DNA of 64,000 nucleotides from Escherichia coli (GTDB lineage Bacteria > Pseudomonadota > Gammaproteobacteria > Enterobacterales > Enterobacteriaceae). The stretch is from assembly GCF_003991155.1 (NCBI RefSeq), contig NZ_CP031293.1. One strand, given 5' to 3'. Position numbers: made by a program. Below, piece by piece: positions 12,483 to 15,400 of this stretch; within the stretch, counting starts at the first letter, position 1; every line of letters starts with the position of its first letter.

Positions 12483-15400
12483 TACAAATTGCGAAAATCC
12501 AATAGATTGCGACTCCCTTGTAGATTGCGACTCCCTTGTAGGCCTGATAAGCGTGGCGCATCAGGCACTTGCTCCCCGAACGTTGAATGAATTGTGGTTC
12601 TTATGTCCGAAACAAAAAACGAACTTGAAGACCTGCTGGAAAAAGCAGCAACCGAACCGGCTCACCGCCCGGCCTTTTTCCGTACTCTACTGGAATCCAC
12701 CGTCTGGGTGCCTGGTACGGCGGCGCAGGGCGAGGCAGTAGTTGAAGATAGCGCGCTTGATTTACAGCACTGGGAAAAAGAAGACGGCACCAGCGTCATT
12801 CCTTTTTTTACCTCGTTAGAAGCACTTCAACAGGCGGTTGAAGACGAACAGGCATTTGTCGTAATGCCCGTTCGCACATTGTTTGAGATGACCCTTGGCG
12901 AAACGCTCTTCCTTAATGCCAAACTGCCAACCGGTAAAGAGTTTATGCCGCGTGAAATCAGTTTGTTGATTGGTGAAGAAGGGAATCCGCTGAGTAGCCA
13001 GGAAGTACTGGAAGGCGGTGAATCGCTGATATTATCGGAAGTCGCAGAGCCGCCAGTACAAATGATTGATTCACTCACCACCTTATTTAAAACCATTAAG
13101 CCAGTGAAGCGTGCTTTTATTTGTTTAATTAAAGAGAGCGAAGAGGCACAGCCTAATTTACTTATTGGCATTGAAGCCGATGGTGATATCGAAGAAATTA
13201 TTCAGGCGGCGGGAAGTGTAGCGACCGATACATTACCTGGCGATGAACCCATCGATATTTGTCAGGTGAAAAAAGGGGAAAAAGGAATTAGCCACTTTAT
13301 TACCGAACATATTGCGCCATTCTATGAACGTCGCTGGGGTGGTTTTTTGCGTGACTTTAAACAGAACCGGATAATCTAAAATATGCCGCCCCAAAGGGCG
13401 GCATTCGGGCTTACCTGCTGTTCTGAAGGTTGTTAACCACCAATAAATTGTTACCGGAGAGACTCCGGTTATTATTTACCTCGGTTAACAGCGCACCAGA
13501 AACAATAAGTACGATACAAAAGCACCGTATCTTCATTGTGCGGTCCATGCGAAGACCGCATCACGACAGCACCACTGGCGATATTGCCGCGATAGCAAGC
13601 GCTGTGAAACACCTGCATTTACGGCCATGGAACATCCTTTCCTTAAGCCAGCGCCCGTTTGCGAGACGGCGGAAAGGGCCGGTGTCGATAATACGCTAAA
13701 TAAACAATGATTACTCTCTTTCGCTTGACAAAAAGAGAGTTACTGGCGAGTATTGCTTTGCTGTGAAGCACCTGCGTTGCTCATGCAACACAAGCCAATC
13801 TGCTGGAAAGGCCGCGAACCAGACCAGCAATAAAAAACCGCCAAATTCGGCGGTTTTTTATTGCCTGTTAAAAGCTTATTTCTCTGGCTCAACCGGTAAA
13901 TCTGCTCGTGCGCCCCATTCACTCCATGCGCCGTCGTACAGTTTCACGTTTGGCACATCAAGTGTCGCGAGTGCCAACAAAACCACGGCTGCCGTTACAC
14001 CAGAGCCGCAGCTGACGATAATCGGTTTGTCATAGCTGACGCCGCGACCAAAAAATATCGCATCCAGTTCATCGGTCGTTTTTAGTTCGCCTTCGCGCAC
14101 CAGTTCCGTCCACGGAACGTTCAATGCACCGGGAATATGTCCGCGACGTAAACCTGGGCGAGGTTCATCAACTTCTGCGTTAAAACGTGCAGCCGGGCGG
14201 GCATCAATAATTTGCGCCGTATTTTCATGGCTTGCCAATAACACATCGGTGACTTTCACCACGGCTTCAGGATTAAACGTGGCGTTAAACTCTCCTTCCG
14301 GCAGCTCTACTGCACCTTCTTCTAACAGCAGATCATCGCGCTGCCAGCCTGCAAGTCCACCCCCCAGAATCGACACTTTCTCTACACCAAAGGTGCGCAG
14401 CATCCACCATGCTCGTGGGGCTGAGAAAAGATTACCTTCGTCATAGATAATCAGGTGCTTATCCTGGTTAACGCCTAATTCACGCATCGCCACGGCGAAC
14501 GTTTCCGGGCGCGGCAGCATGTGCGGAAGCGGGGAAGTGTGATCAGAAAGCGCTTCGATATCAAAAAACACTGCGCCGGGAATATGTCCATTCAGATACT
14601 CCTGAGCAACGTTACGATCTTCCTGTCCAGGCGACGCCATGCGGGCATCGATAATCTGAATTTCCGGGTCATCAATATGTTCGGCGAGCCAGTCGGCTCC
14701 TACAAACCATGTCGTGGACATAGGCATCTCCATTTTTGCCGGGGTTAGGCTAAATTGTCGGATGTTTAGTGAAAAGCGACAAGCAAAAGAGGCTGATTTG
14801 GCTGTCTGAGCCACAATTCTCACTAAAATTCGGATTGTATGGGCGTGATACTGAATTACATAACGTAAATTCTCACGCATAATAATTATTCGACGTTGCT
14901 AACGGGCCATTGTGGCAGGGATGAAAAATGAAAAAGTTACGCGTAGCCGCCTGCATGCTAATGCTGGCGCTGGCAGGGTGCGACAACAACGATAACGCGC
15001 CAACAGCGGTGAAAAAAGATGCGCCTTCTGAAGTTACTAAAGCGGCCTCTTCAGAAAACGTGAGTTCAGCAAAACTTTCCGCGCCGGAGCGACAAAAACT
15101 GGCCCAACAGAGTGCCGGTAAGGCGCTGACATTGCTGGATCTCTCTGAAGTTCAACTTGATGGCGCAGCCACGCTGGTGCTGACGTTCTCCATTCCTCTC
15201 GACCCGGATCAGGATTTCTCACGCGTTATCCATGTCGTCGATAAGAAAAGCGGCAAAGTGGATGGTGCCTGGGAGCTGTCAGATAATCTTAAAGAGTTGC
15301 GTTTACGCCACCTCGAACCGAAACGTGATTTGATCGTCACTATTGGCAAGGAGGTCAAAGCACTCAACAACGCAACCTTCAGTAAAGATTACGAAAAAAC

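Follow-up and report, generated by a model that had tools for sequence, protein, structure and literature searches.

The interval between sseB and sseA in the Escherichia coli DNA analysed here (contig NZ_CP031293.1; the whole stretch of 64,000 nucleotides is referred to as the window) is timP/TimR (previously called ryfA/ryfB), a known type I toxin-antitoxin locus of enterobacteria, and the 24-codon open reading frame (ORF) that drew attention to it is very probably an incidental open frame inside the timP leader and not a gene. The locus was already known, and the original prediction, which proposed that this ORF might encode a small membrane or toxic peptide, singled out the wrong ORF. For the annotation this means that the ryfA interval of this genome holds an intact timP/TimR toxin-antitoxin pair, the toxin gene of which is a 41-codon ORF; the ORF upstream of it, which catches the eye more readily through its Shine-Dalgarno (SD)-like sequence, is not the toxin gene.

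The Rfam model of ryfA (RF00126) matches positions 13682..13378 on the minus strand with 319.4 bits (E 1.9e-89; gathering score 80) over the full covariance model (model positions 1-296), which bears out the earlier placement of ryfA between sseB and sseA. The minus strand would be transcribed from about 13680 into an mRNA of roughly 300 nt. The first 144 nt make up a 5' UTR rich in structure (SL1 to SL4), and the 41-aa inner-membrane toxin TimP is encoded by nt +145 to +270. The corresponding features are:

13378..13680, minus strand: timP mRNA (formerly the sRNA ryfA), from the RF00126 match, with the transcription start site (TSS) at 13680 by homology to Salmonella
13688..13693, minus strand: putative timP -10 hexamer TATTAT, 7 nt upstream of +1, read from the sequence
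13411..13536, minus strand: timP coding sequence, 41 aa MKIRCFCIVLIVSGALLTEVNNNRSLSGNNLLVVNNLQNSR, from the RefSeq annotation in a 100% identical genome and an NCBIfam match
13383..13404, minus strand: intrinsic terminator of the timP mRNA, from a terminator scan, coinciding with the 3' end of the Rfam model

The position of +1 was set by aligning the Salmonella transcript to published landmarks, all of which match when +1 is placed at 13680 (AUG +53-55, C57/C58/G59, UAG +77-79, G102/C103, G125/C138 and G131). The motif GTATTAT at the timP -10 position is kept in the aligned sequences of Escherichia, Salmonella and Superficieibacter. The minus-strand terminator-like hairpin that had been reported was found at 13404..13383, and consists of nine pairs, seven of them G-C, followed by a T-rich tail. 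RefSeq names 13536..13411 timP in the 100% identical genome NZ_CP029747 (WP_004974226.1), and the NCBIfam model NF040796 (toxic_TimP) matches the product with 84.2 bits against a cutoff of 45. This ORF starts at about +145, as expected for TimP, and its product has a hydrophobic, signal-like N-terminus; a search for TimP homologues returned 71 proteins, and most among the matches listed bear the name TimP. The earlier statement that the ryfA transcript codes for TimP, with TimR as its repressor, was correct. In Salmonella TimP is toxic on expression and TimR represses the translation of timP, while for E. coli the literature is divided as to whether TimP is produced and whether it is of importance. 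The published RNAcode analysis of the Rfam alignment is reported to predict the timP ORF, and the paper mentions no other.

The best-described relative of this locus is timP/TimR of Salmonella enterica (Andresen 2020; Eleftheraki & Holmqvist 2024; Eleftheraki 2026), which occupies the same slot beside sseB, has the same divergent arrangement of timP and timR and a leader that is likewise 144 nt long. The stem-loops SL1-SL4, the sites 1-4 and the position of the TimR target map nucleotide for nucleotide onto the window, and the N-terminal signal-like segment of TimP is conserved between the two. The window differs in that TimP has 41 aa as opposed to 38 aa in Salmonella, in lacking an STM2534-like gene between sseA and timR, and in carrying an extra AUG at +46 of the leader where Salmonella has AUA. 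It is this AUG which opens the 24-codon ORF:

13561..13635, minus strand: the 24-codon ORF (+46 to +120 of the leader), from the ORF listing, judged to be non-coding
13636..13644, minus strand: SD-like sequence AAGGAAAGG; its GGAAAGG (13642-13636) forms the 3' side of the lower stem of SL1, base-paired with CCUUUCC (13677-13671)
13533..13628, minus strand: second leader ORF of 31 codons with its AUG at +53, from the ORF listing; its UGA overlaps the timP AUG as AUGA

The 24-codon ORF is present exactly as described, with ATG at 13635, TGA at 13563-13561 and the peptide MFHGRKCRCFTALAIAAISPVVLS, the head of which is basic and which includes about 14 residues of hydrophobic sequence. A minus-strand transcript over 13561-13635, which the idea of a translated ORF presupposes, does exist since the region belongs to the well-documented timP mRNA. 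The ORF lies wholly inside the timP 5' UTR and in frame with timP, the AUG of which is located about 24-25 nt downstream of its stop codon. The strong Shine-Dalgarno attributed to it stands as a motif, but AAGGAAAGG (13644-13636) directly abuts the ATG at 13635 and a useful spacing (4 nt) is available only for its first AAGGA. Such a combination is no more than chance would provide: among the ATG ORFs in the window that span 24 codons or more, 22 are preceded by an SD-like motif of 5 nt, five mononucleotide shuffles contain 17-25 such ORFs, and about 20 ORFs with such features are expected by chance in 64 kb.

At the level of the protein sequence the 24-codon ORF does not behave like a gene. 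Purifying selection, in the form of a synonymous bias with a conserved start and frame, was not found: column entropies are 0.68, 0.59 and 0.42 for codon positions 1, 2 and 3, which makes the third position the least variable, and pN/pS ranges from 0.9 to 5.3 over 13 pairs as compared to 0.23-0.64 in pairwise comparisons of timP. The +46 AUG is present in nine of nine Escherichia haplotypes sampled, in Superficieibacter and in three Rahnella, where the frame usually runs over the full 24 codons to the same UGA, and it is missing from four of seven genera, namely Salmonella (AUA), Citrobacter, Yersinia and Erwinia, in which the frame is nevertheless free of stops. Within E. coli itself, 2,981 of 5,426 complete genomes (1,887 + 1,094; 55%) carry a TAG at codon 6 that shortens the product to MFRDR. 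The expectation that the ORF would be conserved among close relatives therefore fails on both counts, the stop at codon 6 in 55% of E. coli and the several genera without a start. The position of the ORF relative to the timP AUG is in turn fixed at 99 nt in 19 of 19 sequences. Searches with the 24-aa peptide returned no match at E <= 1 to the NCBIfam toxic_TimP model, no match to any other family and no BLASTP alignment to TimP even at E <= 100. Three versions of the peptide are absent, by exact look-up, from about 15 billion proteins, a weak null given that gene callers rarely call anything shorter than 30 aa. The supplement of Stringer 2021 has no entry near ryfA or sseB, which is likewise weak evidence, and the Weaver 2019 preprint does not mention an ORF in the ryfA region.

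The sequence underlying the ORF is accounted for by the structure of the leader RNA, in which every element of the published architecture (SL1-SL4, the pseudoknot between sites 1 and 3 and the pairing between sites 2 and 4) maps onto the window. In addition to the SL1 stem arm given above, the elements are:

13621..13626, minus strand: site 2 (GGCCGU), mapped from the NAR 2026 paper, which pairs with site 4 (the 5' arm of SL4) and frees the timP SD
13595..13619, minus strand: SL2 and TimR target, from a TimR pairing register search and helix counts
13560..13593, minus strand: SL3 with pseudoknot site 3, from the Rfam structure; site 3 (13579-13574) pairs with site 1 in SL1 (13651-13647)
13540..13559, minus strand: SL4, which sequesters the timP Shine-Dalgarno, from the fold, with which published structure probing agrees

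The lower stem of SL1 is supported by the Rfam consensus structure and by both the minimum free energy (MFE) and the centroid fold; across 18 sequences 97% of cells in this helix pair, and the published compensatory mutants M7/M7' showed that it is needed for timP translation. The GGAA core of the SD-like sequence accordingly has a predicted probability of being unpaired of only 0.01-0.10, with its 3' half predicted to be only partly paired, while the +46 AUG is predicted to be mostly unpaired (0.77) and sits in the single-stranded linker between SL1 and site 2. In the same 18 sequences the pairings between sites 2 and 4 and between sites 1 and 3 are found in 100% of cells, the latter with compensatory changes in four of six pairs and with an essential role that is published, and all seven pairs of SL4 are invariant. 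The nested leader structure as a whole pairs in 97% of cells versus 37-47% when the partners are slid. TimR pairs with +62 to +80 (13619-13601) over 19 bp including two G-U, and binding of TimR to SL2 has been demonstrated in Salmonella. The recognition is lineage-specific, as the Salmonella pairing comprises 18 continuous bp.

The ORF coincides piece by piece with elements of the leader: its SD-like sequence belongs to the lower stem of SL1 (3' arm), its codons 6-12 are SL2, the target of the divergent antitoxin sRNA TimR, its codons 15-24 are SL3 including pseudoknot site 3, and its UGA comes directly before SL4, in which the timP SD is sequestered. The conservation and the variation across the ORF are explained by RNA constraints and by the co-evolution of SL2 with TimR. 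By homology to Salmonella, the leader would be inactive when site 1 is paired with site 2 and active when the pseudoknot between sites 1 and 3 and the pairing of site 2 with site 4 form and SL4 opens, and TimR bound to SL2 would block the active state. A rigid, GC-rich and structured leader of this kind can mimic a small gene in three ways: a stem arm reads as a Shine-Dalgarno sequence, a stop-free frame persists even in species without the start codon, and a seemingly conserved C-terminus is in reality a pseudoknot strand.

A different reading is that the ORF is regulatory, in that occasional initiation at the +46 AUG in Escherichia tunes the translation of timP or the access of TimR. The sequence of the peptide would then be irrelevant and even the 5-codon version would suffice, in a manner akin to mok/hok or to attenuation. 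A ribosome on this frame could mask site 2 and unfold SL2 and SL3 before it stops at the base of SL4. The AUG and the SD-like motif occur in every Escherichia haplotype, those with the early TAG included, the AUG lies in the single-stranded linker between SL1 and site 2, and the full-length frame ends 24 nt before the timP AUG and in frame with it. Translational coupling through an upstream ORF is moreover well established for type I toxins, hok/mok among them; in hok/mok, as in the window, an ORF upstream of a toxin with a stem-sequestered SD overlaps the target of the antisense RNA. However, translation of mok is required for the toxin, whereas the comparable test in Salmonella, made on the +53 ORF, showed no dependence, and the activation of timP is an RNA structural switch that, unlike mok/hok, would involve neither processing nor coupling. 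The +53 ORF is the homologue of the 'putative uORF' that was mutated in Salmonella without effect (AUG +53 to AAG left timP translation unaffected); its frame has 31 codons in the window and ends at +77 in Salmonella, and its start is GUG in K-12. In a construct containing SL1, the SD-like sequence and both AUGs, gfp fused to AUG +53 yielded no GFP (Fris 2017); the +46 frame runs into a stop codon in this construct, so that the reporter tests the +53 AUG. An AUG which has the same SD-like sequence at better spacing is thus both silent in this reporter and dispensable, and the core of the SD is predicted to be held in the lower stem of SL1, whose pairing timP translation needs; a 30S subunit at +46 would require an open SL1 and so exclude the essential pseudoknot. 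The AUG is also absent from the four of seven genera mentioned above, which retain the whole switch, and conservation in Escherichia is no higher than in the rest of the leader outside SL2. A regulatory leader ORF is therefore very unlikely. The related proposal that the +46 AUG is a real, weak initiation site in Escherichia, and independently in Rahnella and Superficieibacter, which adds a translation-dependent layer to the switch, is very unlikely as well; the SL1/pseudoknot fold would face competition from a ribosome at +46, which would also occupy site 2. If true, it would be a species-specific layer on a well-studied RNA switch that is not present in Salmonella, and it might help explain the differences in RyfA between E. 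coli/Shigella studies and those in Salmonella, though nothing found points there.

That the 24-aa product itself is made and acts on the membrane is highly improbable. Type I toxins of no more than 19-30 aa exist, and the basic head and the hydrophobic stretch would suit such a role, as would a C-terminal ISPVVL(S/T) common to Escherichia, Superficieibacter and Rahnella. But this motif is encoded by SL3 and the pseudoknot and appears equally in the frames of species without the start, pN/pS is at or above about 1, the ORF is cut to MFRDR in more than half of E. coli genomes, and neither family matches nor the exact peptide were found in the searches described above. In Salmonella a single mutation of the timP start codon removed all toxicity of the transcript, although that transcript is without the AUG at +46. 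The least probable reading is that the toxin gene was duplicated and the ORF is the copy, now decayed. The ORF shares the reading frame of timP and lies immediately upstream, at a locus with past partial duplications (the K-12 TimR module and ryfA1/ryfA2 of Shigella), but the lack of any BLASTP alignment or TimP model match, the conserved SL1-SL3 leader of fixed length in all homologues that underlies it and the presence of an intact timP effectively refute it. The question whether the ORF is an intact or degenerate counterpart of TimP is answered in the negative, as TimP is encoded at 13536..13411 and bears no similarity to the 24-aa peptide.

RyfA1/RyfB1 of Shigella dysenteriae and RyfA of UPEC and APEC belong to the same RNA family, share the SD-like sequence and both AUGs, and their RyfB corresponds to TimR. 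In those studies RyfA is seen as a regulatory sRNA and the production of a peptide is questioned. S. dysenteriae has two sibling copies and K-12 an extra TimR module; the window has one ryfA and one TimR, and is without that module. The comparative sample was drawn from a contig scan with the SL4 pattern GCGGTCNNNGCANNGACCGCAC, which gave at least 15 usable enterobacterial ryfA loci, most of the matches listed being chance occurrences in GC-rich genomes. Salmonella was not among the SL4-pattern matches listed and was obtained through SseB homologues and the contigs encoding them. The Enterobacter and Citrobacter SseB loci examined have no ryfA between sseB and sseA.

The antitoxin side of the locus is divergent from timP, in agreement with the published description, and comprises:

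about 13760..13860, plus strand: TimR antitoxin sRNA (RyfB homologue), both ends placed by inference, with a 5' end complementary to SL2
13725..13753, plus strand: putative timR promoter, with the -35 TTGACA at 13725-13730, a 17-nt spacer and the -10 GAGTAT at 13748-13753, again from sequence
13713..13740, no strand: inverted repeat in the untranscribed divergent promoter region

TimR on the plus strand has what is expected of the antitoxin, namely a divergent position, a 5' end complementary to SL2 and an intrinsic terminator, in which its fold ends strongly (z = -4.7). Both gene body and terminator are kept in the 15 taxa aligned, and in the alignment SL2 co-varies with the TimR 5' end lineage by lineage. 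The TimR pairing comes from a direct register search, as a duplex prediction for the entire leader and the plus strand simply paired the two over their full length, which is meaningless. A consensus promoter scan called neither the timP nor the timR promoter, the timR -10 matching three of six positions, and both were placed by conservation: the timR -35 (TGTCAA in antisense view) is found in 15 of 15 aligned taxa and the -10 (AATACTC, likewise antisense) in 11 of 15, while Citrobacter, Rahnella, Yersinia and Erwinia carry variants. The inverted repeat that had been reported is present, but at 13713-13740 rather than 13708-13737 and with nine perfect pairs and one G-T instead of ten perfect pairs. 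A role as a conserved operator or terminator was rejected, as the repeat is untranscribed and clade-specific; it occurs only in the K-12/C8/window clade, with other sequence at this position in O157-type E. coli and Salmonella, and its 8-nt loop holds the timR -35.

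The interval between sseB and sseA was correctly placed as the ryfA locus: the Rfam ryfA model matches 13682..13378 (minus strand) over its full length with 319 bits, the flanking genes are pepB, sseB, sseA and yfhM, and E. coli 2016C-3878 carries the same 601-nt interval with 100% identity. It is the already known timP/TimR type I toxin-antitoxin system, and the original prediction of a small toxic or membrane peptide had the right place but picked the wrong ORF. The 24-codon minus-strand frame raised as a possible intact or degenerate counterpart of TimP is present with its SD-like sequence, as is a minus-strand terminator-like hairpin (13404..13383). 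The ORF annotated as timP begins 25 nt past the stop codon of this frame and matches NCBIfam NF040796 (toxic_TimP, cutoff 45) with 84.2 bits, whereas the predicted peptide has no match in NCBIfam or Pfam and no BLASTP alignment with TimP. The TimP counterpart is therefore intact and a separate ORF, and the computation establishes both the identity of the mRNA and its toxin frame.

Features of the timP locus (+n, position in the timP transcript; SL, leader stem-loop)
13644-13636, minus strand: SD-like sequence AAGGAAAGG, immediately 5' of the ATG at 13635
+39..+45, minus strand: GGAAAGG, part of the SD-like sequence and 3' arm of the SL1 lower stem
ATG 13635 to TGA 13563-13561, minus strand: predicted 24-codon ORF, peptide MFHGRKCRCFTALAIAAISPVVLS, read from the sequence
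13533-13628, minus strand: second leader ORF, 31 codons, AUG +53 (window 13628)
Codons 6-12 of the 24-codon ORF, minus strand: SL2, TimR-binding side
Codons 15-24 of the 24-codon ORF, minus strand: SL3, including pseudoknot site 3
+122..+141, minus strand: SL4, which hides the timP SD and begins one nucleotide 3' of the UGA of the 24-codon ORF
13536..13411, minus strand: timP CDS, 41 aa, MKIRCFCIVLIVSGALLTEVNNNRSLSGNNLLVVNNLQNSR, RefSeq annotation in 2016C-3878 mapped onto the window
13725-13730, plus strand: putative timR -35 TTGACA, conserved, followed by a 17-nt spacer and GAGTAT

An ORF of the predicted kind is not unusual for the window, in which 22 ATG ORFs reach 24 codons or more and have an upstream 5-nt SD-like motif (17-25 in five window shuffles). 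Leaders were compared from Escherichia (nine haplotypes or species), Salmonella, Citrobacter, Superficieibacter, Yersinia, Erwinia and Rahnella, and in 19/19 the start position lies exactly 99 nt from the timP AUG. An AUG occupies this position (+46) in Escherichia, Superficieibacter and Rahnella and is missing from Salmonella (AUA), Citrobacter, Yersinia and Erwinia; the frame lacks stops even in these four genera, and its openness is therefore a by-product of a constrained, GC-rich RNA. Column entropies of 0.68, 0.59 and 0.42 at codon positions 1, 2 and 3 make the third position the least variable, the reverse of a coding pattern, and pN/pS in 13 pairs is 0.9-5.3 for the ORF, against 0.23-0.64 when timP from these genomes is scored. 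The conservation among close relatives on which the original prediction was staked is absent, with no AUG in four genera and a TAG at codon 6 (MFRDR*) in 2,981 (1,887 + 1,094) of 5,426 complete E. coli genomes. Entropy, pN/pS, start conservation and the codon-6 stop reveal no coding signature, and an RNAcode analysis of the Rfam alignment in an mBio paper predicted the timP ORF and mentions no other. The 24-codon ORF very probably has no function of its own.

The ORF spans +46..+120 of the 144-nt timP 5' UTR. The +1 was set by checking the Salmonella transcript against published Salmonella landmarks (AUG +53-55, UAG +77-79, C57/C58/G59, G76, G102/C103, G125/C138 and G131), all consistent with +1 at window 13680; the putative transcript ends in the window strain follow by homology. 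The leader structure is backed by covariation computed on an 18-sequence alignment, where 97.1% of cells fit the pairing of the Rfam nested structure (37-47% with partners slid) and its covariation score is reached by 0/500 shuffles. Pairing reaches 100% of cells both for the site 1-3 pseudoknot, where four of the six pairs show compensatory changes, and for the site 2-4 interaction. In Salmonella, where TimP toxicity and TimR repression have been demonstrated, both the pseudoknot and site 2-4 pairing are required and the +53 uORF is irrelevant; a 2026 paper describes timP activation as a purely structural switch. By homology, this leader switch would also operate in the window strain. The expression and relevance of TimP in E. 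coli are debated.

A sequence-independent regulatory effect of initiation at +46 in Escherichia would be compatible with an AUG that the partition function leaves mostly unpaired (0.77). Against it stands the GGAA core of the SD-like sequence, with an unpaired probability of 0.01-0.10. Translation was lost when the lower stem of SL1 was disrupted (M7) and came back with the compensatory M7' (Eleftheraki and Holmqvist 2024). The S. dysenteriae ryfA1 leader through CCATGG, on an oligo containing SL1, the SD-like sequence and both AUGs, was cloned into pXG-10 with gfp in the AUG +53 frame and no GFP was detected, the +46 frame ending in TAG (Fris 2017). Such an effect is highly improbable, and a leader frame lacking any function of its own is the preferred reading. 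The start of the 'putative uORF' that PNAS 2024 discusses and mutates is AUG +53, not the +46 AUG, and its change to AAG in Salmonella left timP translation unaffected (Eleftheraki and Holmqvist 2024). The +53 ORF has a GUG start in K-12, and the Salmonella frame ends at +77. In the window its UGA and the timP AUG share bases (AUGA), an arrangement classically associated with coupling.

The divergent TimR transcript is complementary to the leader, its first 19 nt pairing with +62..+80 (two G-U pairs included), and is closed by a strong terminator near 13860 (plus strand); promoter, gene body and terminator are kept in 15 taxa. The recognition stretch of TimR and SL2 vary together by lineage (window/K-12, C8, O157 and Salmonella types), and because of this co-variation substitutions cluster inside the 24-codon ORF. 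The single TimR of the window is cognate. In K-12 (locus L002) the timP-adjacent TimR is of C8 type and SL2 of window type, and judging from these sequences the proximal TimR therefore looks non-cognate. An extra K-12 module beside sseA (L002 856-1240) comprises a window-type TimR, the shared promoter region, 14 nt from the start of a timP leader and ~130 nt of AT-rich filler. An inverted repeat had also been predicted and exists, at 13713-13740 rather than 13708-13737 and imperfect, with nine perfect pairs and one G-T. It falls within the divergent promoter region, which is not transcribed, and its loop contains the timR -35 hexamer. It is limited to one E. coli clade (K-12/C8/window), other sequence being found in O157-type strains and Salmonella, and may be an operator specific to this lineage, or nothing.

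The ryfA copies of Citrobacter amalonaticus (L085 8069-8340), Yersinia similis (L076 4554-4837) and Y. aleksiciae (L121 5125-5409) begin with ~60 nt that look like TimR antisense joined straight into SL2, as if a deletion between two direct repeats had taken out SL1 and both promoters. Rfam Ysr224 lies directly upstream of the Y. similis copy. No ryfA/timP occurs in the sseB-sseA interval of loci L131 (Enterobacter), where an HTH_6/SIS regulator occupies it, and L133 (Citrobacter); the scan yielded Citrobacter ryfA copies at L071 and L085. A REP-like hairpin between pepB and sseB (12438-12482) weakly matches Rfam naRNA4 (40.3 bits, under the gathering score of 59.5). E. coli P276M (L008 1157-1400) has a ryfA match that stops after ~168 nt and a disrupted TimP frame, and its sseB carries the annotation of a frameshifted pseudogene. 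Proteins P0033, P0046, P0035 and P0064 represent rare natural E. albertii and E. coli alleles that carry fusions of one of the leader reading frames to the TimP body, or of TimP to a leader frame, and that probably originated in small deletions around SL4.
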